Positions 37,625-63,422 of a stretch of DNA of 64,000 nt are shown here, one piece after another. This stretch comes from an uncultured Candidatus Saccharibacteria bacterium (GTDB lineage: Bacteria; Patescibacteriota; Minisyncoccia; Phycocordibacterales; CAIZLB01): assembly GCA_964550955.1 (NCBI GenBank), contig CAZKAF010000001.1, forward strand, positions 318,197-382,196. Direction: 5' to 3'. Under the pieces are notes generated by a model, which worked only from the letters and a program-made list of their open reading frames with translations, made no database searches and had not been told where the DNA came from. A program made the translations under genes and the position numbers. Every line of letters begins with the position of its first letter. Within the stretch, counting starts at the first letter, position 1.

Positions 37625-37625
37625 C

Positions 37626-38066: not shown

Positions 38067-38089
38067 TATAATGCATGCTGCGATTATGG

Positions 38090-39405: not shown

Positions 39406-39551
39406 CGAGAGCAGAGACTGTTTTCATCACGAAAACAGTCTGAAACCCAGAGACAAAGTCGGCGCGATTTTGAGGCAATTTTAGGACGGTTTTTGCTTGG
39501 AGTGTTATCCGTCTATTTCCAGCTTCCCAGCTGTTTGAAACTACTTGTAAA

Positions 39552-40175
39552 CTATTTTCCGTGCTTGATTCCATTCCACTTTTCGCGCGGACACTTGTTC
39601 GGCCAATTTCTCCACTCACCGGCATTTCGGTATTTTGGAAACTCCTCCTTTTCAACCCAGTGAAGCTTGTCGTCATCTTTGATATGCATGGTAAATTCTT
39701 TTCCGTTCAGATGATCAATTTCATGCTGAAATATGCGAGCTGTATAACCGGAATATTCTTCCTCGACGACTGCGCCGTCTTCCGCATGCGCGCGCATTTT
39801 TATCTTGTCAGGACGAGAAACGATTCCGCATACTCTGCTTGTTGAAAAGCAGCCTTCGTACCATTCGCCTTCCTCGTCCGATGACCAGATAATTTCAGGA
39901 TTTATATACAATCGCAAATCGCCGACTGTTCCTTTGCCATCCGCGATGACATCGACGAGAATGATTCTCTTTGAAATGCCTATCTGAGGAGCAGCCAAGC
40001 CGACAAGAAGAGGCTTGCCCGCATCTTGCTGCTCGCCCAAAGCAACATCGAACATTTTGCGTATTGAATCCTGAGTTTCCGGCGACGACATGTCTTCGAC
40101 CGGCACCGCATCCGCTACATGGATAAGCACCGGATCGCTCGGCGGAACAAATTTGTCTAGTTTGAGGGCGGCCAT
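39552..40175 (-). CDS. def: peptide deformylase
   Basis: GLAAPQIGISKRI, EGCFS and QHEIDHLNG metal-binding motifs. C-terminal ~35-aa Trp-rich extension. Confidence 0.9.
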   Translation of the reverse strand: MAALKLDKFVPPSDPVLIHVADAVPVEDMSSPETQDSIRKMFDVALGEQQDAGKPLLVGLAAPQIGISKRIILVDVIADGKGTVGDLRLYINPEIIWSSDEEGEWYEGCFSTSRVCGIVSRPDKIKMRAHAEDGAVVEEEYSGYTARIFQHEIDHLNGKEFTMHIKDDDKLHWVEKEEFPKYRNAGEWRNWPNKCPREKWNGIKHGK

Positions 40176-40246
40176 GATTATACAGATTATAGCATTTAAA
40201 TATTGATTTTTAGCAAAAGCATTCTGCGCTATATTTATAATTTTAA

Positions 40247-41428
40247 CTAAATCCCCTTATACACCCTCATGATTCGCAGATGAAGCGCGGTCAATATGAC
40301 GCCTGAAATGATGCCTATGTAAAGGAAGCCCATTTCGTAAGAGAATGCCTGTATCAGCCAGCCGAGCAAGAAGCCGGCGCCGGCAGTCAAGACGCTTTCG
40401 ATCTGGGAACCCAAGGACAGCAGTGTTGCCTTGAATTTGCTTTTGCCCATGATTTTCATTTGATACCCTTCGTCTATTTTGCTCAGACCCCAGTGAATTC
40501 CGCTATTCAATATGAACAATGTCAGAATCACATACGTATTGCCGGCAAGGCCGATGCCGATGATAAGCAGGATGTGCAGCAGGTACTGAAACCGATAGAA
40601 TGAACTGAGCGTGAAATATTTTTCAAATTTGTAGCTGTAAAAAAGAATGAATGACGCCAATGCCCTCCCTATTCCGATAAAGACGCCGAACCACATCACG
40701 GCAACTCCCAATTCGACTTGAAAAGGCGCCCTGAACGCAGACACGCCGAGCAGCGTCGCGCTCATGAGTCCCGAAAAGATCGCGACGGTAAAATAATTTA
40801 TATTCCACGCTTCTTTTACGATCGTCTTAAAATTGGACGCCTGGACTTCCTCTATCTGCACTTGCGTAACTGGGGGCTTTTCAAGAGACAAAACCGCAAT
40901 CAAGCCGACGATGTCGACAATGGCCATGAGCAAAAATGGCACCTTGTAAGAGATTCCGACCAAGAAAGGCACCAGTACCGTAAGGGCTATCGGCACAGCG
41001 AACCCGACTGAGCTTATCTTGCCCATCACGGACGAATATTCGCCGTCACGATTCAGTCCTTTCAAGGTCTCGTGCATGAAAGCGCTTCCGGTTCCGCTGT
41101 TAAACGCCGATCCTATGCTCAATGCCACGGCAGCCATGATGAGCAGGAAAATATTATTCGAAAGCAAGAAGCAGACCGAAGATGCGAGCAGCATGATCCG
41201 GGACACGACCAGCGCCTGCTTGTGGCCTATCTTGTCCGAAACGTAGCCGCTCGGAATCTCGAACAAGAAACTGGCGAAGCTGCCGAATAAAGTTATGGTA
41301 CCGATGACCTGCGGAGTCACTCCGTCGATCGTCAGGTAGTAGGCGCCCAGTATCGCGACAAAGATTCGCTTGTTCGCAACCGACGCGATCGTGAATTTCC
41401 AGATATTGTTTTTTAGGGTGTTGCTCAT
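40247..41428 (-). CDS. MFS transporter
   Basis: 393 aa with about 12 predicted TM helices and a G.....D..GHK-type motif after TM2 (SGYVSDKIGHKQ). Confidence 0.8.
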   Translation of the reverse strand: MSNTLKNNIWKFTIASVANKRIFVAILGAYYLTIDGVTPQVIGTITLFGSFASFLFEIPSGYVSDKIGHKQALVVSRIMLLASSVCFLLSNNIFLLIMAAVALSIGSAFNSGTGSAFMHETLKGLNRDGEYSSVMGKISSVGFAVPIALTVLVPFLVGISYKVPFLLMAIVDIVGLIAVLSLEKPPVTQVQIEEVQASNFKTIVKEAWNINYFTVAIFSGLMSATLLGVSAFRAPFQVELGVAVMWFGVFIGIGRALASFILFYSYKFEKYFTLSSFYRFQYLLHILLIIGIGLAGNTYVILTLFILNSGIHWGLSKIDEGYQMKIMGKSKFKATLLSLGSQIESVLTAGAGFLLGWLIQAFSYEMGFLYIGIISGVILTALHLRIMRVYKGI

Positions 41429-41458
41429 ATTATGGGTTTGCTTGATAATGCCGGCTGT

Positions 41459-42052
41459 CTAAACTTTCTTATAAATAGAAACATGGAATATGCCTGAATA
41501 TTTGCGATATGATTGGACCTTCGCAAGGCTATTCATATTTTGAAATATTTCGTCATACGAACCCGCCAGATGGCAGCCATAGCTCCTTTTGTAAAGACTG
41601 TCCAGCACTTTTTGAATTCGGGCGATTATCTTATATTTTGAAAATCCATGCTGAAAAGAAATTATCGAGCCGTCATGGCGGAGCAGCGCGACTGACTTTT
41701 CCACAATTTCCGATGGATTATCGAAAACGCACAGGCATAAAGGCAAGACAACGGAGTCGTACTCTTCCGCATTTTTCGCGCTCAAAAAGCTTGTCACCTC
41801 GTCTTCGACAAAAATAAATTTTTCAAGCAGGCCCGGCTTGACTATTTGCTTGGAAAAATCCAATCTGGCACCGTTTTTGTCAACGACAGTAACCGAATCT
41901 ATGCTTTCATATTTATAGTAATCAAAGTTGACGCCCAAGCCGGAACAAAACTCCAAGACTGAACCGTGCGCATGCGGAATGCAGCTCTTTCTTAGATTTT
42001 CCAAGTGCGCGGCTCTTTTCTGGTTCTTATACTTTTTTAATAACTTGTTCAT
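41459..42052 (-). CDS. class I SAM-dependent methyltransferase
   Basis: Motif I VLEFCSGLGVN and a downstream acidic motif II. Confidence 0.7.
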   Translation of the reverse strand: MNKLLKKYKNQKRAAHLENLRKSCIPHAHGSVLEFCSGLGVNFDYYKYESIDSVTVVDKNGARLDFSKQIVKPGLLEKFIFVEDEVTSFLSAKNAEEYDSVVLPLCLCVFDNPSEIVEKSVALLRHDGSIISFQHGFSKYKIIARIQKVLDSLYKRSYGCHLAGSYDEIFQNMNSLAKVQSYRKYSGIFHVSIYKKV

Positions 42053-42062
42053 CCTTTTATAA

Positions 42063-42830
42063 TTAATGTCCAGAACGGAGACCGACGCCTCTTCTTAAAT
42101 ACTCCTCCATAAGGGCAATGTCTTCAAAATCTTTTGGCCTGCCGTAATCTTTCTTGAACTTGATAAGCTGATGCAGGCTTAAAAACGGCACGCCGTTGAC
42201 GATCTCGCCTTCTTTCATCAAATCCTTCGCCGTCATCGCCTCGTCTTCGAATCCCAATTCAAGCAGCAATTCGACCCCTTCCTTTTTAAGCCAGCTCTTT
42301 CCGACCTTGCCCGTCCGCGTCCATGGCCGCAATTCCCATCCATTTTCCAGACATTCGTCAAAAAGCTCTTGGGTCACGACGATATCGAGATCGTAAGCCG
42401 GGCGTATGCCTTTTGCCGACATGATTCCGCTTCCGGCAACTACATACTCGCCGATTGGAAAGTTAAGCTTTTCCAATTCCTTAAAGATATCGATCGGGGT
42501 CATTTCTTCCTTAACCCACCTCACGTCAGTCGCATATCCCCCTTTCTCCCCCGGCTTCGCAACCTGAGTCAGATCCTTCTTCTTGCCTCCGAACAGCAGG
42601 AACTCGCCCTCCTCGCCGAGTTTCTCAAGATTTCTCTCGTCCGCATGAAAGCCCGTCCGTTCCAGCAGCTCCCTGGCTGCCGCCTTCGCGGGAAGCTCAT
42701 TTTCTTCTATTTTTCCGGCCGGCAAATCATACTTGCCCGCGCGCAGATAATGATGCATGAGCACCTTGCCATCCTCATCGCTGATTTTTATTTTGACGAA
42801 TTTCCGCATCGCTTTCATTATTTTAATCAA
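42063..42830 (-). CDS. NUDIX domain (paralog 3) fused to a nucleotidyltransferase-like C-terminal domain
   Basis: Nudix box AGKIEENELPAKAAARELLERTGF in the N-terminus. The C-terminal half carries G.G...S..GIR...DLDIVV, resembling a minimal nucleotidyltransferase fold. Confidence 0.5.
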   Translation of the reverse strand: MIKIMKAMRKFVKIKISDEDGKVLMHHYLRAGKYDLPAGKIEENELPAKAAARELLERTGFHADERNLEKLGEEGEFLLFGGKKKDLTQVAKPGEKGGYATDVRWVKEEMTPIDIFKELEKLNFPIGEYVVAGSGIMSAKGIRPAYDLDIVVTQELFDECLENGWELRPWTRTGKVGKSWLKKEGVELLLELGFEDEAMTAKDLMKEGEIVNGVPFLSLHQLIKFKKDYGRPKDFEDIALMEEYLRRGVGLRSGH

Positions 42831-43225
42831 ACGTTTTCATCAAATACTCCGTCAGACTCAGCAGCCACCTCATCCATAAGTTTCATAATTTGGTCACCCT
42901 CTTCTTCAAGTCTTTCAATCAATGCGTATAATTGATCTATTTTATTACCTTCTTGCTCCCATGCAGTCCATTCTTCATCAGAACTCGGCATTTGAGTATA
43001 TTTTACTTTTAGGGCTTCGGCCAACATTTTAGCCTTTTCATAAAGTCCATTAACTATAACCTGTATTTCATTTAAATTCTTTAGACCTTCTTCTTGATCT
43101 GAAATCAGCTTCTCAGTCTTTTCAATCAGAGAACTTAAATGAGCTATTTTCTCTTCTGCCGCGACTATTTGTTTTTCTAAATTGGAATTTTGGTTTTCGT
43201 GATTCATTTGAGCACATTTTAGCAT
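42827..43225 (-). CDS. coiled-coil hypothetical protein
   Basis: 132 aa, Glu/Lys-rich heptad pattern throughout. Confidence 0.45.
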   Translation of the reverse strand: MLKCAQMNHENQNSNLEKQIVAAEEKIAHLSSLIEKTEKLISDQEEGLKNLNEIQVIVNGLYEKAKMLAEALKVKYTQMPSSDEEWTAWEQEGNKIDQLYALIERLEEEGDQIMKLMDEVAAESDGVFDENV

Positions 43226-43281
43226 ACCCTGGACCAGGTGTATCTAAGCTATTCCTGGTCGGACTTGTTCATATTAATACT

Positions 43282-44334
43282 TCAGATCACTCCCGTTTTG
43301 CATACTATTATCTTCGTCTTGAGATATGCGTTGGCGGAAGTCATTGCCTCAATCTCAACCGTCTTTACTATTTGAAATGAGGAATCGCGCGCCACGCTCT
43401 CGAAAACCCCATACTCGCTCGTGTATACTGCAAGCCTGCCGCCAACGCTGAGTTTCCTTTCAGCATACTGCATGAAATTCCGATAAAGTTCTTCTAAATT
43501 TTCTCCTTTGGAAATAGACATGCCGAATGGCAGATCCGATGCGATGACGTCAACCGTGCCAAAATCTGGGTTGTCGCGAATATCAGCCTCTTTGACCTGG
43601 GCTTTTCGTATGAGACCTGCTTCCTTGATGTTCTGAATCGACAAAGAAAGATGCTTTTTGCTATTGTCGAAGCCGATGAGCCGTTCAAGATTCGGATACG
43701 CAAGGCCGGCTTCGATCAATAAAGTTGCACTACCTGAGAATGCATTAAGATATGACTTGGCTTTATCCAATTCGCAAAAAGAATTGAGCGCATGCGCGAC
43801 CGTCGGATCCATGGCGCCGCTCATGTTTTGAACCTTGTAACTTCGCATCGAGAGCGGCCGAGAGGTGATTTGCATGCCAACTTCCCAAACATCTTCAGGC
43901 TTAATGATGTGAATCTTCAGGTCTGCCTCGTCGCTTTCTTTCAGCTTGAAAGCTTCCGCTACGTATGTCGCGAGACTCCGCACCTCAGGCGAATGCGCTC
44001 CGGCGCAAGATATTTTGAAAGTTTTGAACTCTTCGTCGCCTTTATTACCCCCTACGTTTTCGGCCAAAACTACCTCTATTAGATTTCCAAGGATAGATTT
44101 ATTTTTTGAAACGTACGTCGGATTATATCTCGAGCTTTGAACGACAAGATATGCACGTGCAATACTTCTGAGTTTTTTAATGTCAGCCAGAAGATTCCGA
44201 TCAAAAGCTGCGTAAAGAGAATCCGCCTCATGTCTCAAGATGCGCATGCCCTCGATTTTTTTAATCTCATTTAAGACGGCCTCTTGAAGTCCGGTCGCGT
44301 AGGATAGTTTGAGTTCTGGCTGGGTTAGGGTCAT
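43282..44334 (-). CDS. THUMP-domain RNA methyltransferase (Trm14/RlmL-like)
   Basis: N-terminal THUMP-like region, SAM motif I (GSATLLIEAG) and catalytic DLPFG (DPPF-type). Confidence 0.7.
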   Translation of the reverse strand: MTLTQPELKLSYATGLQEAVLNEIKKIEGMRILRHEADSLYAAFDRNLLADIKKLRSIARAYLVVQSSRYNPTYVSKNKSILGNLIEVVLAENVGGNKGDEEFKTFKISCAGAHSPEVRSLATYVAEAFKLKESDEADLKIHIIKPEDVWEVGMQITSRPLSMRSYKVQNMSGAMDPTVAHALNSFCELDKAKSYLNAFSGSATLLIEAGLAYPNLERLIGFDNSKKHLSLSIQNIKEAGLIRKAQVKEADIRDNPDFGTVDVIASDLPFGMSISKGENLEELYRNFMQYAERKLSVGGRLAVYTSEYGVFESVARDSSFQIVKTVEIEAMTSANAYLKTKIIVCKTGVI

Positions 44335-44510
44335 TGGTTTATCTTGCGTTTTTTCAGGTCCTAGCTTTTCATTCTATAAACCTCAACAAAGTGGTTTTTC
44401 CTGCCAGCAGCTTCAAATTTTTGAGCGGCAAATTGTCTGGCTAATTCGATTTGGTTCATACTCTGGACATATTGCAATTCTATCGCATATTAATTGGATT
44501 CTATCATACT

Positions 44511-45008
44511 TTAGACGATACGCTTAAGAGCCTTTTTTATCATCGCATCGCTCCGCTCACCCCAATCAAAATACTGCTTATAATCCAATGGGTCGATGAG
44601 CTTGATTTCAGTAATTTCCCCATCTTCAGCGGCGTCTTTTGTAAAATCCCCGTAAGGTTCAACTATGGCAGCATAGCGAAGTATATACACAATTTCATCC
44701 GTTTCTTCGCTCGCGTATGTCTCATAACCTAGAGGAAACAGCTCAAGAACTTTCATATTTGATTCCTCTTTTATTTCCCTAGCAATACAGCCTTCGAATG
44801 TTTCCCCTTCTTCACGACCACCGCCGGGCATTTCCCAAACATCCCTGCCATGAGCATAACCTAATACTAATTTATCATTATAAAAACACAGCGCTCCCGC
44901 TGCACCTACAGGTAAAGACCGAATGGAGTCGAAAGTATCTAATTCTTCGTATCGTACGCTCCATTTTATACCTGTACGTTTTGATGTGTAAGTAGTGTTT
45001 GTAATCAT
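44511..45008 (-). CDS. NUDIX hydrolase (paralog 4)
   Basis: Nudix box GGGREEGETFEGCIAREIKEESNM. Confidence 0.75.
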   Translation of the reverse strand: MITNTTYTSKRTGIKWSVRYEELDTFDSIRSLPVGAAGALCFYNDKLVLGYAHGRDVWEMPGGGREEGETFEGCIAREIKEESNMKVLELFPLGYETYASEETDEIVYILRYAAIVEPYGDFTKDAAEDGEITEIKLIDPLDYKQYFDWGERSDAMIKKALKRIV

Positions 45009-45088
45009 AATCGTAAACTTGCCCCGCGCTTAATTGGACACGCCGTCTCGAGCCAGAATCATGGTCGACCAAACACCGTTTAGTCCGT

Positions 45089-45922
45089 TTAGGACATTCT
45101 AGCATGCATAAGTTTGATCGTGCTCTTGAAATGGTCGACAAAAAATACCGGTATTTTTAATTCTGAAAACCTCCCAACGCAATATGAATTAATGGCGTCC
45201 GTTGCAATTTGAGTCTGATCAAGGTTGTTCAATTCAATATGACCTACGATGATTCCTTTAGGCGTATTTTGATTAATGACGTACATGAACTGGCTCAATA
45301 TGTACCCGAGATCATCGAGAGTTTCGCCAAGCGCACCGCTGTGATATTCAATAAATACATATTTGTCCTGCAGATGAGTCTTAAGGCCGTTTTGGAGAAG
45401 GATGAATCCTGGAAGATATCCTCCAATGACGTTAACCTCAAAGACGTTGGGCACTTCAGTAGTTCCGGCTGCGTCCAAAACCTTAAGCCTTTCGCAGGTC
45501 GGTTTATTTTCCTTCAAGAAGTCTACAATAAATTGACGGCCTGCTCTTTCCGGCAAGAAATCTTTTACGTACGCTAATCCTTGGCCGTAATAGCATGTTA
45601 CCCCTTTTGTTACTGCAATTGCTGCAAAATGAGTGAAGTCACTAAGGCCATAAAAAATCTTATTCGAACCGACAACCTTGTCCCAATCTATTTTATTCAA
45701 TACTCGAAGACAATCTGAACCCCCTCTAATAAACCAGACGAGGTCAGCGTCGCTATTCAATGCATCATTAAACAAGGTCACCTTTCCATCAAGATTGTCA
45801 GCCCCTGTCGCAAAGTCAAGATAATCAATCTTCTCCTCCACAAGAAAATCAATCGAATCTTTATAAGAGCGATGTTTCTTAAAGTCTGACTCCTGACACA
45901 AATCCACTAGCGCGATTTTCAT
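45089..45922 (-). CDS. LD-carboxypeptidase-like (peptidase S66) protein; AT-rich
   Basis: IRGGSDCLRVL and the GLSDFTHF Ser motif, with a later EYHSG, in the order of S66 catalytic residues. Confidence 0.5.
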   Translation of the reverse strand: MKIALVDLCQESDFKKHRSYKDSIDFLVEEKIDYLDFATGADNLDGKVTLFNDALNSDADLVWFIRGGSDCLRVLNKIDWDKVVGSNKIFYGLSDFTHFAAIAVTKGVTCYYGQGLAYVKDFLPERAGRQFIVDFLKENKPTCERLKVLDAAGTTEVPNVFEVNVIGGYLPGFILLQNGLKTHLQDKYVFIEYHSGALGETLDDLGYILSQFMYVINQNTPKGIIVGHIELNNLDQTQIATDAINSYCVGRFSELKIPVFFVDHFKSTIKLMHARMS

Positions 45923-46000
45923 AAACTAATTGTATCATAAGAAATTCCTAGCCAGATTTACCTCATGCCACGTAGAATATTCGAGCCGGCTTTTCTTGGT

Positions 46001-46017
46001 GGGCCCACAAGGATTCG
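46001..46017. repeat. 17-nt direct repeat of the tRNA-Trp 3' end
   Basis: GGGCCCACAAGGATTCG is identical to 46216-46232 inside tRNA-Trp, 215 bp away. Confidence 0.7.
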
Positions 46018-46214
46018 GTCGTTACACGACCAGTATGCCTTTTAAACAGTCTGTTCGCCTCGTTTATGTACCCAAATAATATCACAACATCACCCCTCGG
46101 CTCGATACTGTGCTCAAAAGCCCTTCTCATCCTTGTCGAAAGCACCCCGTGCTTCCTTGGACCCTTCGATGGAGGTAAAATACCGCCCAATAAATTAGGC
46201 GGTATTTTACTCTG

Positions 46215-46286
46215 CGGGCCCACAAGGATTCGAACCTTGAACCTCGCGTTTGGAGTGCGATGTTTTACCATTGAAACTATGGACCC
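46215..46286 (-). tRNA. tRNA-Trp(CCA)
   Basis: Reverse complement GGGTCCA..TCGCA-CTCCAAA-CGCGA..CAAGG-TTCGAAT-CCTTG-TGGGCCC-G. Discriminator G73; no encoded CCA. Confidence 0.8.
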
Positions 46287-46594
46287 GTTTTAATTTGATT
46301 GTGCTGATACAGGCGTCGGCATTCATCCGAAAGGCTTGCCGGACAGAGAACGCAATTCCGTAACTTGCTGATATTCTCAACGCGCCGCCAACCCAGCAAC
46401 AACGCCAAAATCTATATCAGATACGCAACATACTAATCTAAATCGCCTGAAAACTCAACAAATGACAGGGTGCCAGATTGGAGAGATGACACCCAAATCT
46501 CCGGCGACAACTTGAGAAACCAAAGCAAAAAGCACCTCGTACGTGTGCTTTTTGCAGGAGTAAGGAGTTCTGCGAACAACCAGACAAATACGTC

Positions 46595-46750
46595 TTACTT
46601 TTTAGACTCTGAAAAGTCCACTCTCTTTCGGAGTTTTTTGCTGTATTTCTTTAGTTTGATTTTTCGTTCTACGCCTTTTTTGTTCTTTCGAGTGAAGATC
46701 ACTTCTCCAGTTGGCTTATGTACGATTTTGATGAGTCTATCTTGTGACAT
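46595..46750 (-). CDS. rpmG: 50S ribosomal protein L33 (51 aa; absent from ORF track)
   Basis: MSQDRLIKIVHKPTGEVIFTRKNKKGVERKIKLKKYSKKLRKRVDFSESKK aligns in pattern with L33 ([21 protein letters not shown]...[20 protein letters not shown]). Confidence 0.7.
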   Translation of the reverse strand: MSQDRLIKIVHKPTGEVIFTRKNKKGVERKIKLKKYSKKLRKRVDFSESKK

Positions 46751-46848
46751 GGTTGTATATTATGTTTACATAAAATGCTATTTCTAAGTTGTTCGTCTTT
46801 GACCTTATTTAAGCCTTTGATGAACGCTTCCTTACATTTTACTGGTGT

Positions 46849-46862
46849 GCAGAGCAGGATTC
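46849..46862. repeat. 14-nt direct repeat of the tRNA-Tyr 3' region
   Basis: GCAGAGCAGGATTC is identical to 47014-47027 inside tRNA-Tyr, ~150 bp away. Confidence 0.6.
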
Positions 46863-46985
46863 TCCGACTACGTCGGCAGGTGCTTTTCGATCTCATCTTC
46901 GCTTGATACCAAGCTCGATTCGATAACGAAAAGCCTTTCTCATCCTGCACGAAAGTCATAAATGACTTTCTTATGCTTACCTAAT

Positions 46986-47010
46986 AAAAAGGACATTTGT
47001 CCTTTTTTTG
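46986..47010. terminator. bidirectional rho-independent terminator abutting the tRNA-Tyr 3' end
   Basis: AAAAAGGACAtttGTCCTTTTTTT; the GGACA/TGTCC stem has U-runs on both strands. Confidence 0.5.
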
Positions 47011-55180: not shown

Positions 55181-55257
55181 GGCGTAGTGGCGAAGTTGGT
55201 CAACGCGGCAGTCTGCAAAACTGCTATGCGCCGGTTCGATCCCGGCCTACGCCTCCA
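55181..55257 (+). tRNA. tRNA-Cys(GCA), CCA encoded
   Basis: Acceptor GGCGTAG/CTACGCC, anticodon stem GCAGT/ACTGC with loop CTGCAAA, discriminator U73 and 3' CCA. Confidence 0.8.
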
Positions 55258-55275
55258 GGACAGGAAAGCAAGATT

Positions 55276-55359
55276 GCCCGGGTGGCGAAATGGTAAACGC
55301 GTGACACTTAAAATGTCATGACTTAAACAGTCTTGTGGGTTCGAGTCCCACCCCGGGCA
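55276..55359 (+). tRNA. tRNA-Leu(TAA) with a long variable arm
   Basis: Acceptor GCCCGGG/CCCGGGC, anticodon stem TGACA/TGTCA with loop CTTAAAA, and T-arm GTGGG-TTCGAGT-CCCAC. Confidence 0.8.
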
Positions 55360-55527
55360 CAGAATGCGGCGCAAGCACGGTGTCATGGCGGTCCTGAGAA
55401 ACCCCCGGACGGCACTTTTTCTTTTCTTTCTTTTATGCTATAAAGTACTTACTTTTATAGTGCAGGGAAACGAAGACGGAAGTCGCGGGACGGAGGAATT
55501 CGAGAAACGCATGATAAAATCACATAT

Positions 55528-55603
55528 CCGCCCGTAGCTCAGTTGGTAGAGCAACTCCCTCTTAAGGAGATGGTCGTAGGTTCGAATCCTACCGGGCGGA
55601 CCA
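55528..55603 (+). tRNA. tRNA-Lys(CTT), CCA encoded
   Basis: Acceptor CCGCCCG/CGGGCGG (C1-G72), D-stem GCTC/GAGC, anticodon loop CTCTTAA, and T-arm GTAGG-TTCGAAT-CCTAC. A27/A43 mismatch. Confidence 0.7.
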
Positions 55604-55777
55604 TAAACAAAAGAATACTTTTCAAGTGTTGCTTTTGTTTATTTGAAGCCCGAGTGCATAATTTATTATGCACGTGCAGGATTCGAAAGGGTTCTCCTGT
55701 ATTTTTGAGAAACGAGCAAAGTTCATGGCTGAGCGAGTTTTGAAAAAATAGGAAACCCGTACTGGTCCTGTAAGGAC

Positions 55778-55796
55778 CGAATCCTACCGGGCGGAC
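55778..55796. repeat. 19-nt direct repeat of the tRNA-Lys 3' end
   Basis: CGAATCCTACCGGGCGGAC is identical to 55583-55601 inside tRNA-Lys, ~195 bp downstream. Confidence 0.7.
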
Positions 55797-55869
55797 ACGT
55801 CGCAAGTCATGAAACCGCCGTTCGCGAGAATGCGGCAAAATGATTGTACGTAAAAAGTTGGGCGAGTGG

Positions 55870-55955
55870 TGAAACGGTAGACACGTCAGTCTTAGGAACT
55901 GATTCCCGCAAGGGAGTGGAGGTTCAAGTCCTCTCTCGCCCACCAGCAAAAAGCA
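55870..55955 (+). tRNA. tRNA-Leu(TAG) with a long variable arm, CCA encoded
   Basis: Acceptor GGGCGAG/CTCGCCC, anticodon stem TCAGT/ACTGA with loop CTTAGGA, and T-arm GGAGG-TTCAAGT-CCTCT. Confidence 0.8.
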
Positions 55956-56769: not shown

Positions 56770-58182
56770 ATGATCTACATCATTACCATCGGAGTGCTTG
56801 CACTCATCATCATGGCCTGCTTTGCCTACCGGGCAAAGTCACGGGAACTGGAAAACTTCGATGCTCGGCCTGAGGATAACACCTCCAGCCAAGCATCAGG
56901 CAACCCCGCTCCTCGACCAACTGACGCGCGGAACATTCCGGGCGCTCAAAGCCACCGGGTGCCCGCTCAAGGAACTGTCGGTCCGGAAGCAGAAGATCCC
57001 AGGCCTTCAAAATCGCCGAGCAAGGAAGAAAAGAAATTCGCGAAATTCAAAGAGGCTGAAAAATTGCCGAAGGACGAAACAGAAGATGAAGGCGACCTGC
57101 CTACCATCTCTCCGCTGACTCTCTCGGCGTTCGGGCTCATCGCGATGACCTTTTTATGGCTAATCGGCATCAAGCTGACCACAACTCAGTTTGATGCGAA
57201 ATTAGTTACGCTTGCCGGAGGAATCCTCGTAGTAACGTTGTGGTTCTTGTGCTGGAAATCTGAACCTGAAAAGAAAGATGATAAAAAAGGCGACAAGGAT
57301 AAGAAAGATGACAAGCCTGCCTCGGAAGTGCCGGATGGGCACGTAGCCATCCTCGAAATACTCGGGATACCAATCAAATGGTTTACCTTGTCCGAAGGAA
57401 GGCTCTGGCTGATTCCCTTCGTCATGGACGTAAAAATCAGGGACATTCGCGAGGAAAACATCAAGATACCCCTGACGCCGGAAGAGGCGGGATTCACCAT
57501 CAGCTCGTCTGATGGCATAGCATTGCGGGTGCACGTCAGTGCAACCGTGAAGGTTGATGGCAACAAGCTCTACCGGGCAATCTTCGGCATCAAGGCAGGA
57601 AGCGCAATTCAGTCCTTCAAGGACGAGTACGTGACCGCGATTCGAGAGCTCGCGCTCTTGTTCCCGGTTGCCGACCTCATCAATGCAGGTCATGAATCAA
57701 GAAAGATGCTGCTTGACGGGTTTTTCATGATAGAAAACGGAAAAGAGATTCCCTACCACGGAATTATCTACCGCTTATATGTGAGAGCCCGAGCGATGGC
57801 GCTTACGGTCATCGACAACTCCATATCGATCGTGAAGATTGATTTCGAAAGCCAGGCAATGCGGGACTACATGTCTCAAAATGCTCAGCGGAAGATGGAG
57901 GCAAGCGCAAATGAAACTCGCGCAGCCGCGGTTAACGCCAGGGCTCAGGAAATCAGGAATCTCAGCGAAGGCAACATGTCCTATGGGGACGCGCTCAGCG
58001 CAGCTCAGCAGGAATTCAACATCGTTACCAAGAGGGTCATCGCCTTCGAGGGCAAGCCTCCGTCAGGAGTCCTGATTAACATCGACGACAAGCCAGACCA
58101 GGGACAAAATCCCAAGCAGGACAACCAACCAGAAAAAGAGAAGAAGAAAGACGGAAAAGACAAGAAAAAAGATCAGAAGTAA
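56770..58182 (+). CDS. SPFH/band-7 (stomatin/HflKC-like) domain membrane protein with Lys/Asp-rich tails
   Basis: N-terminal TM, low-complexity Pro/Lys region, a second TM pair, then a band-7-like core (VAILEILGIPIKWFTLSEGRLWLIPFVMDVKIRDIREE...). KKDDKKGDKDKKDDKP and KEKKKDGKDKKKDQK repeats. Confidence 0.5.
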   Translation: MIYIITIGVLALIIMACFAYRAKSRELENFDARPEDNTSSQASGNPAPRPTDARNIPGAQSHRVPAQGTVGPEAEDPRPSKSPSKEEKKFAKFKEAEKLPKDETEDEGDLPTISPLTLSAFGLIAMTFLWLIGIKLTTTQFDAKLVTLAGGILVVTLWFLCWKSEPEKKDDKKGDKDKKDDKPASEVPDGHVAILEILGIPIKWFTLSEGRLWLIPFVMDVKIRDIREENIKIPLTPEEAGFTISSSDGIALRVHVSATVKVDGNKLYRAIFGIKAGSAIQSFKDEYVTAIRELALLFPVADLINAGHESRKMLLDGFFMIENGKEIPYHGIIYRLYVRARAMALTVIDNSISIVKIDFESQAMRDYMSQNAQRKMEASANETRAAAVNARAQEIRNLSEGNMSYGDALSAAQQEFNIVTKRVIAFEGKPPSGVLINIDDKPDQGQNPKQDNQPEKEKKKDGKDKKKDQK

Positions 58183-58209
58183 AACCGAAAGTCTAAACCG
58201 AACACCTGT

Positions 58210-58779
58210 ATGAAGAAAGCAAAAACAGCATTAGGATACGTGGCCGCGACATTGATAATCGGAGGAGTGCTCTACTTTGCATTTCCTCCCTTATTTCACT
58301 GGCTCTTCGACAAAGAAGTCAGCGTCGCTGCCGAGGAAATAGCTGACAAGGTCGACGACCTGGCCCGCAAGGCGCCAGGCGTCGCCAAGAAGGTTCTCCC
58401 TCCGGTCGAGACGGAAGTTTCGCTGAAAAAGGGCGAAAAATCCGACTGGTATGTCTCCGGATACACCTGCACTTTGCGGGTACCGGACTACGGCATCGTC
58501 AGGGTCAAGCACCTCGACGGGACCGTGACCGAATACCGGGACTACCTGGTCGTGAGCGAAAGCCGGTCCGCCTTCCAAAAGAAGGTGGACGACGAATGGA
58601 CCGAACATGAGTACGGTCCGGGCTGCTATGGCGACAACATGCTTGCCATGCAGTTCGAAGCTGCAGGCATCGGCACATCGACCTTCAAAGTGACCTACCC
58701 GGAAGGGACAGTCATCCAGAAGGAAGAGCCGGCAAGTCCGTCAGTGCCAGCCGCCGCCACGGCCAGTTCTTCAAAATAG
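58210..58779 (+). CDS. hypothetical membrane-anchored protein
   Basis: N-terminal TM (ALGYVAATLIIGGVLYFAF) and an extracytoplasmic domain with Cys residues. Followed by a terminator. Confidence 0.5.
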   Translation: MKKAKTALGYVAATLIIGGVLYFAFPPLFHWLFDKEVSVAAEEIADKVDDLARKAPGVAKKVLPPVETEVSLKKGEKSDWYVSGYTCTLRVPDYGIVRVKHLDGTVTEYRDYLVVSESRSAFQKKVDDEWTEHEYGPGCYGDNMLAMQFEAAGIGTSTFKVTYPEGTVIQKEEPASPSVPAAATASSSK

Positions 58780-58868: not shown

Positions 58869-59024
58869 GCAAGAATATCCGCAGGAAAATATTCGAACCC
58901 GGCGCCGGCGGCGCACGACTGTTCCATCTTTCTTCATGCTCACGAAACGCGAAAACAGCCCCTTTCGAGGCTGTTCTGCTTAGAATCAATCTTGCCGATT
59001 GGCCGTTTCCCCTTCAGGCCGATC

Positions 59025-59309
59025 CTACCGGCTGATGATTTCATTCACTCCGTTTTCCTGAGGATTCGCTCCGATGGTATTCATTATGACGTTCATGATG
59101 CCGAAGACGGAAATCATGATGAAGAGTCCTACCACGCCCGCTATCATGTGCCGGCTTCCCGTGGAGCGAGCGTCGTCGCTCCCGGATCCTTTCACATACT
59201 CGAACACTCCGTACACGAAAACAAGCACCGCGATGCCGAACAAAAGACTGATGATCGGGTTGATGATGACTTGATTTACCTTATGAATGAATTCGATGGC
59301 TGAGGACAT
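59025..59309 (-). CDS. two-helix small membrane protein, member 6 of the VirB2/TrbC-pilin-like array (no signal peptide)
   Basis: Two hydrophobic helices separated by the GSGSDDARSTGS loop; same topology as upstream paralogs. Confidence 0.55.
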   Translation of the reverse strand: MSSAIEFIHKVNQVIINPIISLLFGIAVLVFVYGVFEYVKGSGSDDARSTGSRHMIAGVVGLFIMISVFGIMNVIMNTIGANPQENGVNEIISR

Positions 59310-59338
59310 GGCAATGCGGAATCAGATTCTTTTTAGGA

Positions 59339-59713
59339 TTACTGCGAGATGAAATATCCTGCTGAAGTCGGAAGACCGGGCGCAGGCGGAGCCGTGTTGT
59401 CGAGGTTGACGCTTCTGACGAGGATGTTCACCAGGCCCCATACGGATACCATCACGAAGAGGGCCACGATGCCCCAGATGATGTATCCCTGCGCCTCCTT
59501 TCGAGCTTCCCCGTCTCCTCCGGCGATGACGAACTTGAAGATACCCCAAAGGAAGATCAATACCGTCAATGCGATGATGAACGGGATCAATCGGTTGATA
59601 AGATCGCTTGCCTGAGCCAAAAGCCCGAGAACCCCACCGATACTCTGGGCACCCGCAATTGCAGGAACGGCTGCAAGCGAGAGAACACCGAGTTTGAGCA
59701 ATGTCTTTTTCAT
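59339..59713 (-). CDS. signal peptide + two-helix small membrane protein, VirB2/TrbC-pilin-like (member 5)
   Basis: Signal peptide MKKTLLKLGVLSLAAVPAIAGAQS, helix 1 LIPFIIALTVLIFLWGIF, loop AGGDGEARKEA, helix 2 IIWGIVALFVMVSVWGLVNIL. Confidence 0.6.
   Translation of the reverse strand: MKKTLLKLGVLSLAAVPAIAGAQSIGGVLGLLAQASDLINRLIPFIIALTVLIFLWGIFKFVIAGGDGEARKEAQGYIIWGIVALFVMVSVWGLVNILVRSVNLDNTAPPAPGLPTSAGYFISQ
59426..59461. repeat. 36-nt identical segment shared by three pilin-like paralogs (copy 1)
   Basis: GTTCACCAGGCCCCATACGGATACCATCACGAAGAG also occurs at 59897-59932 and 60194-60229. It encodes the conserved FVMVSVWGLVN helix. Confidence 0.8.
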
Positions 59714-59806
59714 CTTTTAATTTAAGAATTATTATGTATTAAGCGACCCTTAACTGCTTAAAAGCCGATGATGAAATTATATCACACTTTGCATCGCGCC
59801 CATGCC

Positions 59807-60136
59807 CTATGAGATGCGGGCTGTGGATGTGACGGAAGCCTTTATGTCAGGAATGGCCGGAAGAGGAGGCATGGTGTTATCGAGCCTGAATGATGCCACG
59901 AGCAGGTTCACCAGGCCCCATACGGATACCATCACGAAGAGCGAGACGATGCCCCATGTCATGTACCCCCTGGCTTCCTTCCGCCCATCAGAATCCCCTG
60001 CCGCCGTCACGTACTTGAAGATGCCCCAGATGAAGACGAGCACGGTGAGCGAGATCACGAGCGGCGCCAATCGATTGATCAGATCGAATGCGAGCGCGAT
60101 TACCTTGAAAAGTCCGGTTCCTGATTGATTTAGCAT
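59807..60136 (-). CDS. two-helix small membrane protein, VirB2/TrbC-pilin-like (member 4; no signal peptide in this ORF)
   Basis: DLINRLAPLVISLTVLVFIWGIF..AAGDSDGRKEA..MTWGIVSLFVMVSVWGLVNLL. Start is 4 nt after the stop of member 3. Confidence 0.55.
   Translation of the reverse strand: MLNQSGTGLFKVIALAFDLINRLAPLVISLTVLVFIWGIFKYVTAAGDSDGRKEARGYMTWGIVSLFVMVSVWGLVNLLVASFRLDNTMPPLPAIPDIKASVTSTARIS
59897..59944. repeat. 36/48-nt paralog repeat (copy 2)
   Basis: 48 nt identical to 60194-60241. Confidence 0.8.
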
Positions 60137-60140
60137 GCTT

Positions 60141-60488
60141 TTATTTTAATTGAGGGATAATGAGGGCTCCGCCGAAGAACGTCGAGGTCAGGATGTTCAC
60201 CAGGCCCCATACGGATACCATCACGAAGAGCGAGACGATGCCATATGTGATGACAGAGATGGCCTCCTTTCGGGCATCCTCGCTGCCGCTTCGGACGAGC
60301 TGGAAGATTCCCCACATGAAGACAAGAAGCGTGAGCGCGACCACCAGCGGAATCAGCATCCGAATGAAGCTGAGTATCAGCTTGATGACGTCGCCGAAGT
60401 TCTGCACGTTCTGCGCAAAAGCCAGGGCCGGCAGAAGGACGGCAGCGAGCGCCAGGACGTGGGATGCGAATGAGATTGTTTTTTTCAT
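60141..60488 (-). CDS. signal peptide + two-helix small membrane protein, VirB2/TrbC-pilin-like (member 3)
   Basis: Signal peptide MKKTISFASHVLALAAVLLPALAFAQN, then LIPLVVALTLLVFMWGIF..SGSEDARKEA..ITYGIVSLFVMVSVWGLVNIL. Confidence 0.6.
   Translation of the reverse strand: MKKTISFASHVLALAAVLLPALAFAQNVQNFGDVIKLILSFIRMLIPLVVALTLLVFMWGIFQLVRSGSEDARKEAISVITYGIVSLFVMVSVWGLVNILTSTFFGGALIIPQLK
60194..60241. repeat. 36/48-nt paralog repeat (copy 3)
   Basis: See copies 1 and 2. Confidence 0.8.
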
Positions 60489-60508
60489 ATGTTTAAATTA
60501 TGACTCTG

Positions 60509-61024
60509 CTATGACCCAAGCTGGGTAATGGTTCCCTGTATGACTCGGGCAATGACCTGCGCGCCGAGGATGACAGCGGCCCCCACGGCTGTCCAGGTAA
60601 ACGTCTGAGTCGCTGCGGATATCTTCGCGCTGTCGCCGCGGGCCGTGACGTAGTTGAAACCGGCAAGGATGAAGAAGAATACGACGACGATGGAACCGAG
60701 TATGGTCACGATCCTGAGAAGGTCATTCAGGAGAGCGGCAAGGCTTGTCGCCTTTATCGGATTCGCGAACCGCAGATTCTGAGACGACGGCCTGTTCGCA
60801 CTCCCCAGGCCAGTCTGGCCTCCGGTACCAGGACTGCCCAAGTCCGTCTGGCCTCCCGTATTCTGACTTCCAAGCCCGGTCTGTTCAGCGAACGTTTGGC
60901 TCGGGCCGATGCTCAAGGACCCAAGAGACATCACGGCGACCAAAGCCAGCGTCAGACAGATATGTCCCAAGACCGTTTTTGAATGCTGATATGCGGACTG
61001 CGCTGTTTTTTTCATGATGTTCAA
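60509..61024 (-). CDS. signal peptide + Gly/Thr-rich repeat + two-helix membrane protein, same family (member 2)
   Basis: GGQTDLGSPGTGGQTGLGS repeats, then RIVTILGSIVVVFFFILAGFNYV..TARGDSAKISAA..TFTWTAVGAAVILGAQVI. Confidence 0.55.
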   Translation of the reverse strand: MNIMKKTAQSAYQHSKTVLGHICLTLALVAVMSLGSLSIGPSQTFAEQTGLGSQNTGGQTDLGSPGTGGQTGLGSANRPSSQNLRFANPIKATSLAALLNDLLRIVTILGSIVVVFFFILAGFNYVTARGDSAKISAATQTFTWTAVGAAVILGAQVIARVIQGTITQLGS

Positions 61025-61050
61025 TTTATAAATTAAGTATACCTTAAATC

Positions 61051-61467
61051 CTATTCTAATAAACTATAGCCGCTCAAAGCCGGGTTCAGCAGCAGCTTCA
61101 GCACTTCGCTGACAATCAGCCATGCGCCGAGCATGAAAAAGAGGCCGATGGCGACTTTCGTGAAGATGCCATGCGCCTTGGAAATCTGGCTGCTATTGCC
61201 CTGAGAAGTTATGTACAGCCAGCCGGCATACGTTATGGAAACGACCACGGCTATCGAAGCCAGGTAAAGCGCTATATGCAAAAAATTTTGACCGAGAAAG
61301 ACTATTTCATTCCATCCGCATCCGCCGGGATTCGTGAAGCACGCATTCGGAATAAGCGGCTGGCCGGGGCTCCAAGCCAGCGAGACGCTCGGAACGACTG
61401 AAAACAGCAGGAGCAGGGCTGGAACAAAACGGAGGGAGGGCCGAAGAAACTTCTGTAGATTTGACAT
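61051..61467 (-). CDS. signal peptide + two-helix membrane protein, same family (member 1; contains a CxxxxxxGGC motif)
   Basis: Signal peptide, IPNACFTNPGGCGW, then HIALYLASIAVVVSITYAGWLYI..SQGNSSQISKA..IFTKVAIGLFFMLGAWLIV. Confidence 0.5.
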   Translation of the reverse strand: MSNLQKFLRPSLRFVPALLLLFSVVPSVSLAWSPGQPLIPNACFTNPGGCGWNEIVFLGQNFLHIALYLASIAVVVSITYAGWLYITSQGNSSQISKAHGIFTKVAIGLFFMLGAWLIVSEVLKLLLNPALSGYSLLE

Positions 61468-61569
61468 GATTAGTGTTAAGTATATCAGTCTTTACGGCAG
61501 TTTCATCGAATTTTCATCAATACTTATCCACATAAATGCGCGCCGGAAATGAAGCCTTGATGCTCTCGC

Positions 61570-62862
61570 TTACCTGAGAAGACGCTCAAGCCTTTGCCGC
61601 GCCTCAGAAATGGAGTCGGTAATCTTCTTCCTGCCGGATGTCACCGATTCGATCATCTCGGCAAAGATCCTGTCCGTTTCGGCGCTGTTCGGATCGAACC
61701 AGGTCTGGCTCTGGATTGCTGCCCGGTTGAATACGGACATGTATGCGTTCGTCGCCGGCTGAGAGAGGATGTCAGTTCGAACTGCCGGAAGGCTCGTGAG
61801 GTCGCTCCACATCTGAATTGAATTCCTGTCGGTCAGCCTTGAGATGACGGCGATCGCGCCGGCCTGATTTCGGCTTTGCCTTACAATCGAAAACGCCGTC
61901 ATCTTGCCGTACGTGACGGGGATGCCTTCGGCGAACTGCGGCATGAGAGCCACGTCGAAGTTCAGGTTCGGATTCTTGTCCTGCAGGCGATTCAATTCGC
62001 TTGCGTATCCGAAGTACATGGCGAGATTTCCGGCCAAAAACGCATCTTCGGATGTCGGCAAGGACCTGTTCCATGTGTAGAGGGCCTTCGAAGGATTGGC
62101 GAATGACGTATAGTAATCCACGACCGATTCGGGAGACGAGACGGCGCGGGTTCCGTTTCCGTCAAGCGTCGAGAAAATGGCTCCGTTGTCCGCATTTCTT
62201 GAAGTGATGGGGTTTCCTGACTGGAAGAAGAGCGTGGCAAGGACGCCTTTCGCATTCGTGATGTTGGTATATTCTCCCATCGGGACCATGGCCCGAGTAA
62301 TGCTTGAGGCGTCGGTCCTGACAATGAGCGAAGGGCCGACAGTCGCAAGGTCCGCCCATGTCCTCGGAACCTGCGCCACGCCCGCGCCGGCAAAGATGTT
62401 CTTGTTCCAATACATGACGAGCGGATTCACGGAAAGCGGAACGCCGAGGATGCCGTCAGGCGCGACGAAGTGCCGGGCGCCATCTATGAACGTGCTCCTG
62501 AACGTCCTTTCGTCGAACATCGTGAACGGAATGGGCTGCAGCTTGTTCCTCTGCGCATACAGCATGTCGTCGGTGAGAAGCACGGCGTCCGGTCCGCGGC
62601 CTTCCGCCAGCGCGTTCACGAACTCATTTTCAAACGTTTCCGGAGCTTTCTGGACGTAATCGACTTCGATCACGTTGTCCGCGATGTTTATGTTTCGCAC
62701 CAGCTCGCTGATGACCTGCCCGGGCACGGTGCCCCAAATGGTAGCTTTCGGAATCGCGCCCCTGCTTGCCCCTCCGAAGCTCGCGAAGATGGCTATGCCG
62801 ACAACCGCCAGGAACATGAACCCCGCAAGCACCACTATTTGAAATACGCTGATATTTTTCAT
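61570..62862 (-). CDS. extracellular solute-binding-protein-like (SBP family 1 fold) secreted protein, co-oriented with the pilin-like array
   Basis: N-terminal signal anchor IVVLAGFMFLAVVGIAIFA. 430 aa with maltose/oligosaccharide-SBP-like composition (..WNKNIF..DLATVGP..). No permease or ATPase genes adjacent. Confidence 0.6.
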   Translation of the reverse strand: MKNISVFQIVVLAGFMFLAVVGIAIFASFGGASRGAIPKATIWGTVPGQVISELVRNINIADNVIEVDYVQKAPETFENEFVNALAEGRGPDAVLLTDDMLYAQRNKLQPIPFTMFDERTFRSTFIDGARHFVAPDGILGVPLSVNPLVMYWNKNIFAGAGVAQVPRTWADLATVGPSLIVRTDASSITRAMVPMGEYTNITNAKGVLATLFFQSGNPITSRNADNGAIFSTLDGNGTRAVSSPESVVDYYTSFANPSKALYTWNRSLPTSEDAFLAGNLAMYFGYASELNRLQDKNPNLNFDVALMPQFAEGIPVTYGKMTAFSIVRQSRNQAGAIAVISRLTDRNSIQMWSDLTSLPAVRTDILSQPATNAYMSVFNRAAIQSQTWFDPNSAETDRIFAEMIESVTSGRKKITDSISEARQRLERLLR

Positions 62863-62867
62863 GAATG

Positions 62868-63422
62868 TTAATTATCTGCTAAAGACGCCAGGTCCTGCAC
62901 GTACATCAGCCCGTAATGATGCGTCCCCGCATCGAGATATGATTCGAGCTTGAACCCGTTCGATTCGAACAGGCCTTTCGTCTCGTCGAGAGTCAGGACA
63001 TGGTCAGGATGAGGCCCTATCTGGGAAAACGAGTCGGCCCAATCGACAACGGCGACCTTGCCGTCATGCTTGAGGACCCTTTTCGCTTCCTTGATGATGA
63101 GTTCGGGCTTCTCGGACTGAAACAGCACGTTGCTTATGATGATCCGGTCCGCGGATGCGGACACCAGTCCCGAGCCCTTCTGAGCTTCGAGGTCGCCCTG
63201 GATGACCTCGACCTGCTCGTATCCTGCGCGAACGGCTTCGTTTTTAATTTTCCTGAGATAATCCGGATGCGCGTCGATCGCGAAGACCCTTCCGTACGGC
63301 CCGACTTTTTTCGCCAGCCTGAGCGCATAGAATCCTACTCCCGCACCGAAGTCGGCGACAGTCATGCCCTCGGCCACGAACATCTGACCGATAACTTTTT
63401 CAGGATCTGAGAACATGAGCAT
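62868..63422 (-). CDS. class I SAM-dependent methyltransferase
   Basis: Motif I VADFGAGVGFYALRLA and motif II RVFAIDAHPDY; 184 aa. Confidence 0.7.
   Translation of the reverse strand: MLMFSDPEKVIGQMFVAEGMTVADFGAGVGFYALRLAKKVGPYGRVFAIDAHPDYLRKIKNEAVRAGYEQVEVIQGDLEAQKGSGLVSASADRIIISNVLFQSEKPELIIKEAKRVLKHDGKVAVVDWADSFSQIGPHPDHVLTLDETKGLFESNGFKLESYLDAGTHHYGLMYVQDLASLADN

Follow-up and report, generated by a model that had tools for sequence, protein, structure and literature searches.

On the minus strand of a 64,000-nt stretch of DNA from an uncultured Candidatus Saccharibacteria bacterium (contig CAZKAF010000001.1, positions 318,197 to 382,196; the whole stretch is called the window here), we found a tandem array of six genes for small pilin-like membrane proteins, designated m1 to m6. 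The array is preceded on the same strand by genes for a solute-binding-protein-fold protein (SBP) and a methyltransferase and by the 3' end of gyrA (Table 1). The original prediction had described six consecutive minus-strand paralogs, 4-93 nt apart, and linked on one strand to these three neighbours. Both the coordinates and the neighbours could be confirmed, the intergenic gaps from m1 to m6 being 26, 20, 4, 93 and 29 nt. For m2, public gene calls use the ATG at 61015 (168 aa); the TTG at 61024 would give a protein of 171 aa. Plus-strand open reading frames (ORFs) that lie over the array (58992-59303, 59802-60128 and 60160-60528) were rejected as mirror-frame artefacts, all homology and conservation being found in the minus-strand frames. 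Four classes of subunits, assigned by best match, are distinguished in the following: A (m1), B (m2), C (m3 to m5) and D (m6).

Table 1. Genes and sequence features of the pilin-like array and its upstream neighbours; positions refer to the window.
Feature	Position	Strand	Description
m1, class A pilin-like protein	61051-61467	-	138 aa; opens the array; signal peptide, Cys loop CFTNPGGC, two-helix hairpin
m2, class B pilin-like protein	60509-61015	-	signal peptide, ~60-aa G/Q/T-rich linker, hairpin
m3, class C pilin-like protein	60141-60488	-	115 aa; signal peptide
m4, class C pilin-like protein	59807-60136	-	109 aa; without signal peptide; start 4 nt past the m3 stop codon
m5, class C pilin-like protein	59339-59713	-	124 aa; signal peptide; penultimate gene, most conserved type
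m6, class D pilin-like protein	59025-59309	-	94 aa; short, leaderless; closes the array
SBP, sugar type	61570-62862	-	430 aa; N-terminal membrane anchor; directly upstream of the pilin-like genes
Class I SAM-dependent methyltransferase	62868-63422	-	184 aa; cytoplasmic; first gene of the conserved unit
gyrA, 3' end	from 63476		neighbour of the methyltransferase gene
Extended -10 promoter-like motif TGATATAAT	59776-59784	-	in the 93-nt gap, 62 nt before the start codon of m5; consensus match only
Promoter-like site ATGAAA-16-TATACT with TG	61479-61506	-	in the 102-nt gap between SBP and m1; consensus match only
Terminator-like hairpin, 11-13 bp stem, then U-rich UUUUCGCGUUUCG	58949-58979	-	~46 nt past the m6 stop codon
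33-nt tract coding for LFVMVSVWGLV (helix 2)	m5 59429-59461; m4 59909-59941; m3 60198-60230	-	identical in all three genes

According to their hydropathy profiles, m1, m2, m3 and m5 consist of an N-terminal signal-like segment and two hydrophobic helices, with AxA-type cleavage motifs in all four (SLA/W in m1, TFA/E in m2, AFA/Q in m3 and AGA/Q in m5; the slash marks the cleavage site). Proteins m4 and m6 are made up of the two helices alone and start directly at helix 1. Hydropathy and cleavage motifs thus bear out the proposed division into four members with and two members without a signal peptide. The helices of all six proteins are divided by a short loop with Asp/Glu and Arg/Lys, and the charged loop sequences quoted in the original prediction are all present. 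In m2, the G/Q/T-rich linker that separates signal peptide and hairpin includes a stretch encoded by a 33-nt tandem repeat (60800-60865; two copies, 73% identical). Pairwise identity sorts the six proteins into three groups: it amounts to 37% for m1 and m2, to 55-65% among m3, m4 and m5 (m3 versus m4 and m5: 55-61%) and to 34-40% between m6 and the m3-m5 group. Between classes, identity in the window is 19-40%, and the overall copy-to-copy range is 19-65%. A local family hidden Markov model (HMM), which comprises the array and its relatives, matched only these six ORFs in the 64 kb (E from 1e-27 to 1e-42; m1 7.5e-28, m6 2.5e-34), which indicates that the array is no chance pattern.

All six proteins match PF18895 (T4SS_pilin, the Pfam model of type IV secretion system (T4SS) pilins). 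With respect to the curated gathering cut-off of 26.6 bits, m2 (32.6), m3 (32.6), m4 (38.6) and m5 (29.7) score above it; m1 (21.9) and m6 (23.7) fall just under it and join the family via the local HMM; orthologs of both match the model. The cut-off of PF04956 (TrbC/VirB2; 27.9 bits) was reached by none of the six, the best score being that of m3 (14 bits, E = 0.058). Of the two pilin models against which the array was to be checked, PF18895 therefore supports the assignment for every member, but PF04956 does not. We also scanned 141 members of the window array and of 25 orthologous arrays singly against Pfam: 139 match PF18895, and 29 match PF04956 at E <= 0.01 (best E = 1.5e-8). The PF04956 matches in related loci sit on the second gene of the array. 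Matches of m3, m4 and m6 to NCBIfam NF045849, a pilin-like family of the Mycoplasma integrative and conjugative element (ICE), have E-values of ~1e-5 (24-26 bits, below the 40-bit cut-off). When 1.84 billion representative proteins were searched with a family profile, 43,381 members were found at E <= 1e-3.

The AlphaFold2 monomer model of m5, based on 78 homologs, shows a signal helix (residues 2-23) followed by a two-helix hairpin (helices 28-63 and 68-102, i.e. 36 and 35 residues) with a pLDDT (per-residue model confidence) of ~90, in agreement with the topology proposed for the array. Among solved structures, the best sequence match is the pKM101 pilin TraM (8cw4), although this match is non-significant. 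Foldseek returned nothing at E <= 0.001 from the PDB, its weak matches including ATP synthase c-subunits, and we therefore judged the hairpin too simple for Foldseek. Five of the 141 array members match DctQ, the small TRAP transporter subunit (best E = 2.9e-6). The idea of a VirB2/TrbC-type pilin-like tandem array is thus supported by the PF18895 matches, by the PF04956 matches in orthologous arrays and by the predicted hairpin. Both membership in the T4SS_pilin family and a relationship to VirB2/TrbC at the superfamily level are well supported. Type IV pilins and pseudopilins were rejected, as we found no match to N_methyl (PF07963) and no class III signal peptide, the N-termini being AxA-type signal peptides or leaderless.

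To collect relatives of the array, each GTDB species was represented by a single genome and scanned for the motif LF[VI]MVSVW. There were 351 confirmed matches, of which 79 loci were kept, with flanks of 10 kb. The nearest homologs all come from metagenome-assembled genomes (MAGs) of Paceibacterota, Parcubacteria or Patescibacteria. In each of the 79 loci, 2-10 pilin paralogs are arrayed on one strand; the shortest arrays are truncated at contig ends. Orthology follows the position in the array: the first and second genes of orthologous arrays are m1-like and m2-like, respectively, an m5-like gene is penultimate in 64 of 80 cases, and an m6-like gene comes last in 73 of 79. An exact A-B-C(2-4)-D order was seen in 47 of 66 arrays; contig ends truncate most of the remaining ones.

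Each class has signatures of its own. A pair of cysteines (Cys-x(3-20)-Cys) just before helix 1, followed by D/G-W/F, is present in 56 of 58 class A proteins and is rare in the other classes. In m1 this is the Cys-x6-C pair at 61330-61353. Such a pair would fit an outward-facing placement of the N-terminal part of class A. Exactly two hydrophobic segments and no leader were found for 76 of 77 class D proteins. Class C is mixed in this respect, with 118 of 202 members having a signal peptide and 75 having the two hydrophobic segments only; leaderless orthologs of m4 include P0015, P0032, P0073 and P0100.

Several relatives are considerably larger. In one class A protein of 737 aa (locus L054, 7134-9347), the hairpin is preceded by ~600 aa of FN3-like (Pur_ac_phosph_N) repeats, so that the protein looks like an adhesin-bearing subunit. 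Class B relatives have long low-complexity linkers. In three loci (L037, 7917-8945; L039, 8417-9481; L040, 2661-3755), three class C hairpins are fused behind one signal peptide, with hydrophilic linkers of 30-40 aa between them; the proteins P0241 and P0281 are also among the natural fusions. Of the 43,381 family members, many among the best 150 have two to nine hairpins per chain, with nine in one public protein of 820 aa. These natural fusions indicate that the subunits lie side by side, with both termini and the linkers on the outer face.

The genes upstream of the array belong to the same conserved unit. The SBP (SBP_bac_8, 1.5e-19; SBP_bac_1, 1.4e-15) has sugar SBPs as its nearest solved relatives (4r9f and 4qrz) and 1079 homologs, all of ~430-450 aa. 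Its neighbour matches the Pfam families Methyltransf_31, _11 and _25, and 3dh0 in the PDB at 6.6e-20. The gap between SBP and first pilin gene has a median of 3.5 nt (66 loci; 102 nt in the window), that between methyltransferase and SBP a median of 18 nt and a maximum of 209 nt (63 loci). On the other side of the methyltransferase gene, the distance to gyrA exceeds 300 nt in 14 of 58 loci, with inserted genes in several of them, and the methyltransferase-SBP link is kept even there. A common block, gyrA → methyltransferase → SBP → pilins … IF-2 ← DUF4446 ← NifS → ClpB →, is found in nearly all loci with enough flank; the downstream side of the array varies by 2-9 kb among loci. In two more distant cases (L078 and L086), the arrays are located in other housekeeping contexts and have no adjacent SBP. 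Neither a BPD-type permease nor an importer ATPase was detected in the window, and none was seen beside the SBP in related loci. The window ORFs of at least 400 aa all have housekeeping functions, as do most of the smaller ones (UvrA/B/C, TopA, ClpB, IF-2, SerRS, Tgt, DprA, ParB, NifS, iPGM and others). Housekeeping genes also prevail for ~10 kb past the array-side end of the window and for ~5 kb past the other end, barring a serine recombinase at tRNA-Ala (see below). Together with its two upstream genes, the array forms a core operon that a clade of Paceibacteria has inherited vertically, in the order methyltransferase → membrane-anchored SBP → pilins.

Candidate expression signals were sought with a sigma-70 and terminator scan of the region, in which sites were no more frequent than in shuffled sequence, so that the sites in Table 1 have to be taken as leads only, backed by the conserved gap and by RNA folding. 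The gap preceding the penultimate gene stands out among the orthologous arrays: it is long in every species, its median length is 102 nt, compared to 4-19 nt at the other gaps within the array, and 28 of 69 such gaps contain a TGnTAnnnT motif. This would fit a separate, and possibly higher, expression of m5 and m6, in which case m5 might be the bulk subunit. The terminator-like hairpin downstream of m6 is kept in the RNA-fold centroid structure; it was not flagged by a simple terminator scan.

Arrays of this kind have been described before. Four to six small proteins with Sec signals, arrayed beside the T4SS of TM7x, were first reported by McLean et al. 2020 (PMC7427843), and a six-pilin array inside the T4SS cluster of Southlakia epibionticum ML1 was found to be essential (Wang et al. 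2023, PMC10633639). Quiñonero-Coronel et al. 2025 (PMC12102498) applied PF18895 and PF04956 to 3,035 genomes of Patescibacteria and obtained 441 arrays, each with 2-11 pilin genes, from 383 assemblies; a pilin gene lay near virB4 in 1,135 of the 1,948 assemblies that had both VirB2-like pilins and VirB4. The paralogs were proposed there to serve variation or host range. A 2025 review considers the Patescibacteria systems unique among monoderms in their potential to build conjugative pili. If a Patescibacteria pilin array is taken as at least two tandem PF18895 or PF04956 genes in a genome of this group, the window provides six tandem PF18895 genes. The original prediction was right in assigning the array to a kind already reported from Patescibacteria, but overstated the case in calling machinery and function largely unknown, since arrays together with a monoderm-type T4SS are treated in all three studies (PMC12102498, PMC10633639 and PMC7427843).

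The window array shares with these published arrays the family (PF18895), the phylum and the tandem layout of 2-11 small paralogs with signal peptide and two helices, as well as a low identity between copies (19-65% here, compared to a published mean of 25% and a maximum of 54%). It differs in its location. The arrays of ML1, TM7x and Microgenomatia lie in or beside a virB4 cluster, whereas the window array is at least 10 kb away from any T4SS gene, within the gyrA-IF2 core block. Unlike these published arrays, it is also co-transcribed with a methyltransferase gene and a sugar-type SBP gene. We conclude that the window array belongs to the published kind and that distal pilin genes are not unusual, so that no new kind of system is at hand; what the present analysis adds is detail, namely the operon partners, the subunit order, the conserved gap, the conversion tract (see below) and the natural fusions. 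In the literature searched we found no mention of the link to SBP and methyltransferase genes, of the fixed order of classes, of the promoter-like site within the array, of the conversion tract or of the fused and domain-bearing forms.

The wider interest lies in the Patescibacteria themselves, which account for a large part of bacterial diversity and, it appears, live on other microbes. In the sole species tested genetically, the VirB2-like pilin array is essential. Across a large clade of Paceibacteria, such an array is inherited with the core genome as a fixed and ordered set of four classes, always co-transcribed with the SBP and methyltransferase genes, and is not a loose collection of variable copies. 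This raises hypotheses on a division into major and minor subunits, on a glycan-binding partner and on which subunits are neighbours, the last from the natural fusions.

With the TrbC/VirB2 pilins of diderm T4SS (T-pilus VirB2, RP4 TrbC, pKM101 TraM and F TraA), the six proteins have in common the signal peptide, the two-helix hairpin and the short basic loop. On the other hand, they stay below the PF04956 cut-off, come from a monoderm organism and lack an adjacent virB operon. Diderm systems have one major pilin plus VirB5, whereas the window array encodes several distinct classes. Mature TrbC/VirB2 pilins are 70-78 aa long, compared to ~100 aa for the window proteins. The archaeal Ced/Ted pilins (8dfu, Aeropyrum pernix) share only 13% sequence identity; their margin over unrelated helical proteins is small, and domain of life and gene context differ. 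The Mycoplasma ICE family Mbov_0395 (NF045849) likewise comprises small two-helix proteins of a monoderm conjugation system of the MPF-FATA type; there, however, a single gene resides in a mobile element, as opposed to the chromosomal array of the window. Type IV pili and type II secretion systems (GspG-K) are comparable in having an ordered operon with one abundant and several specialised paralogs, some of them with extra domains, but as fold and signal are unrelated this is an analogy only.

We somewhat favour the reading that the six genes encode VirB2/TrbC-superfamily pilin-like subunits of a Patescibacterium of the Paceibacteria type, in a conserved core-genome operon, which are assembled by a distal T4SS into a heteromeric surface structure. 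According to this proposal, Sec/YidC would insert the hairpins such that the N and C termini are outside and the short Arg/Lys-containing loop is cytoplasmic, and signal peptidase I would cleave the class A and B proteins and some members of class C. As with VirB2, a monoderm-type T4SS (VirB3/VirB4/VirB6/TrsD) would then extract the subunits from the membrane and polymerise them. This system would be encoded elsewhere in the genome, because published surveys usually put the Paceibacteria system near dnaA (virB4 being usually found near dnaA and dnaN). The product would be a heteromeric surface filament or conduit that contacts the host cell. Class C would provide the bulk subunit, above all m5 with its own promoter-like site, making m5 the candidate major subunit; A, B and D would be low-copy specialised subunits, A and B showing N-terminal extracellular domains in relatives. 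As a partner we propose the co-transcribed, membrane-anchored SBP, which might act e.g. as a glycan-binding adhesin or receptor. The protein is kin to sugar-binding SBPs, has no transporter genes alongside and is a plausible glycan-binding partner.

Several observations speak against such a distal assembly. VirB4, VirB3, VirB6, TrsD and a coupling protein were all absent from the window and from its flanks (~10 kb on the array side, ~5 kb on the other). No T4SS motor gene was found within 10 kb of the array in any of the 79 related loci, and no VirB4 in the 86 loci retrieved. This search covered the window, its flanks and 10 kb around related arrays. The original prediction had noted that VirB4, VirB6 and VirD4 as well as PilB and PilC are missing from the window, and annotation of the window ORFs agrees, PilB and PilC having no counterpart in the 64 kb. 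The link to a T4SS thus comes from the family name and the literature. In addition, the fused chains, which have up to nine hairpins, are more readily imagined as polytopic membrane proteins than as monomers of a pilus, and to our knowledge no pilus of such a kind has been seen in any Patescibacterium. Among genomes with an orthologous array, one (Kaiserbacteria, L057), a draft MAG, is listed as VirB4-negative in Table S1 of PMC12102498. In favour of distal assembly, another one (Yonathbacteria, L051) is VirB4-positive in the same table.

These points lead to the main rival explanation, in which the hairpins stay in the membrane and form a T4SS-independent hetero-oligomeric ring or channel resembling ATP synthase c-subunits, with the SBP making it an unconventional uptake or sensing device. 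In its favour are, besides the lack of any T4SS gene within 10 kb in the 79 loci, the tight and invariant link to an SBP gene that has no ABC permease or ATPase alongside, and the concatenation of two to nine hairpins per chain, which is habitual in ring-forming membrane hairpins. The c-subunits among the weak Foldseek matches and the few DctQ matches point in the same direction; the latter are rare, however, and may reflect mere hydrophobic composition. The link to the SBP, too, has its limits, given the two arrays without an adjacent SBP (L078 and L086), and we know of no SBP-dependent transporter with two-helix subunits. What weighs most against a ring is that the sequence family is that of the VirB2/TrbC superfamily, and that the same family is embedded in T4SS clusters of other Patescibacteria and is essential there. 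We therefore regard a ring or channel as rather doubtful.

Assembly of pilin-like subunits by a distal T4SS thus remains our preferred explanation. A bolder variant, which we think unlikely, would make methyltransferase-SBP-A-B-C(n)-D a self-contained Paceibacteria module. It would give a monoderm cell a heteromeric tube or filament of the VirB2 type, with the SBP and the domain-bearing minor subunits as host-glycan receptors; the structure would serve attachment or nutrient transfer and not DNA or effector export, and maybe it would do without a dedicated VirB4 motor.

The original prediction had pointed out a stretch of identical sequence shared by members 3-5 and had compared it to antigenically varying surface-protein families. 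The stretch is real: 33 nt are identical in m3, m4 and m5 (Table 1), and between m3 and m4 the identity extends to 48 nt. For helix-2 copies that encode the same peptide, mean nucleotide identity is 90% within genomes (23% of the pairs fully identical), compared to 79% between genomes (0% fully identical). Because within-genome identity exceeds between-genome identity, the threefold identical tract reflects local homogenisation among class C genes, and it is read as a gene-conversion tract. The proteins of the window occur on a 696,200-bp NCBI contig and on Logan contigs of SRR16797981 and SRR16797977. Two independent Logan assemblies of the source samples end inside m3 (~60200-60490; ends of L001, L002 and L003), at the tract common to m3, m4 and m5. 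Short-read assemblies may undercount arrays of this type, because they break at the repeated tract in m3.

This raises the question if the array serves chiefly for surface variation, in which recently duplicated and converted copies would diversify antigens or host range, comparable to the VirB2 paralogs of Bartonella and Anaplasma. Such a role was proposed in the published survey (PMC12102498). It would also agree with the change of class C copy number from 2 to 4 among species, with the gene conversion detected among C copies and with the wide variation of the C-terminal tails and of the class A and B N-terminal parts. The likeness to antigenically varying families is nevertheless weak. The paralogs are four ancient classes whose order is fixed across 79 species, and conversion has affected the invariant helix 2 and not an exposed part; for these reasons antigenic variation does not appear to be the main logic of the array. 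Furthermore, identity between classes in the window is merely 19-40%, and neither silent cassettes nor invertible elements were seen. An array kept mainly for variation is, in our estimate, decidedly unlikely.

That the proteins are Sec-exported cargo of a T4SS, i.e. effector or toxin subunits and not structural components, is an idea first raised for the TM7x array by analogy to pertussis toxin (McLean et al. 2020, PMC7427843), and the signal peptides of four members would suit it. We hold it to be very improbable, as two members have no signal peptide, each member consists of little besides its two transmembrane helices and has hardly any soluble part, the matches are to the pilin families PF18895 and PF04956, and the TM7x array was later reinterpreted as VirB2-like pilins (PMC12102498). 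Holin-like or other phage or mobile-element proteins, which the small size, the two transmembrane helices and the serine recombinase and transposase elsewhere in or beside the window might bring to mind, are effectively refuted and deserve hardly any weight: no member has a PHROG match at E <= 0.01, no endolysin or phage genes are nearby, and the orthologs lie not in a lysis cassette but in a syntenic core block of housekeeping genes, from gyrA to IF-2/ClpB, in ~79 species.

Some further features of the region were noted. Convergent to the array, at 56770-58779, are genes for an SPFH/Band-7 protein (470 aa, its long ends charged and of low complexity) and for a membrane-anchored protein of 189 aa; in related loci, this position is occupied by similarly sized genes without annotation. 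Four tRNA genes (Cys, Leu, Lys and Leu) form a cluster at 55181-55945, with rbfA on one side and the SPFH gene on the other. tRNAs were the only RNA families found with Rfam. The GC content of window positions 36000-47000 is 41-49%, compared to 52-55% elsewhere, and this stretch may be an acquired island. It contains a Mutator-family transposase gene (38090-39064, minus strand) and genes for a C39-like peptidase, an MFS transporter, a NUDIX protein and methyltransferases. The segment that lies immediately past position 1 of the window (L091, 11287-15517) encodes a large serine recombinase of 516 aa with Resolvase and Recombinase domains. The recombinase gene adjoins the tRNA-Ala gene (426-502) and is followed by small unannotated ORFs; the segment may be an integrated element. 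Two adjacent genes at 8623-10391 code for DUF5122 beta-propeller proteins, one of them with a peptidoglycan-binding domain; both are probably secreted or associated with the cell wall. In a related Patescibacteria MAG (L086, 10962-14621), the gene for pyruvate phosphate dikinase is split by an intein with a LAGLIDADG domain.

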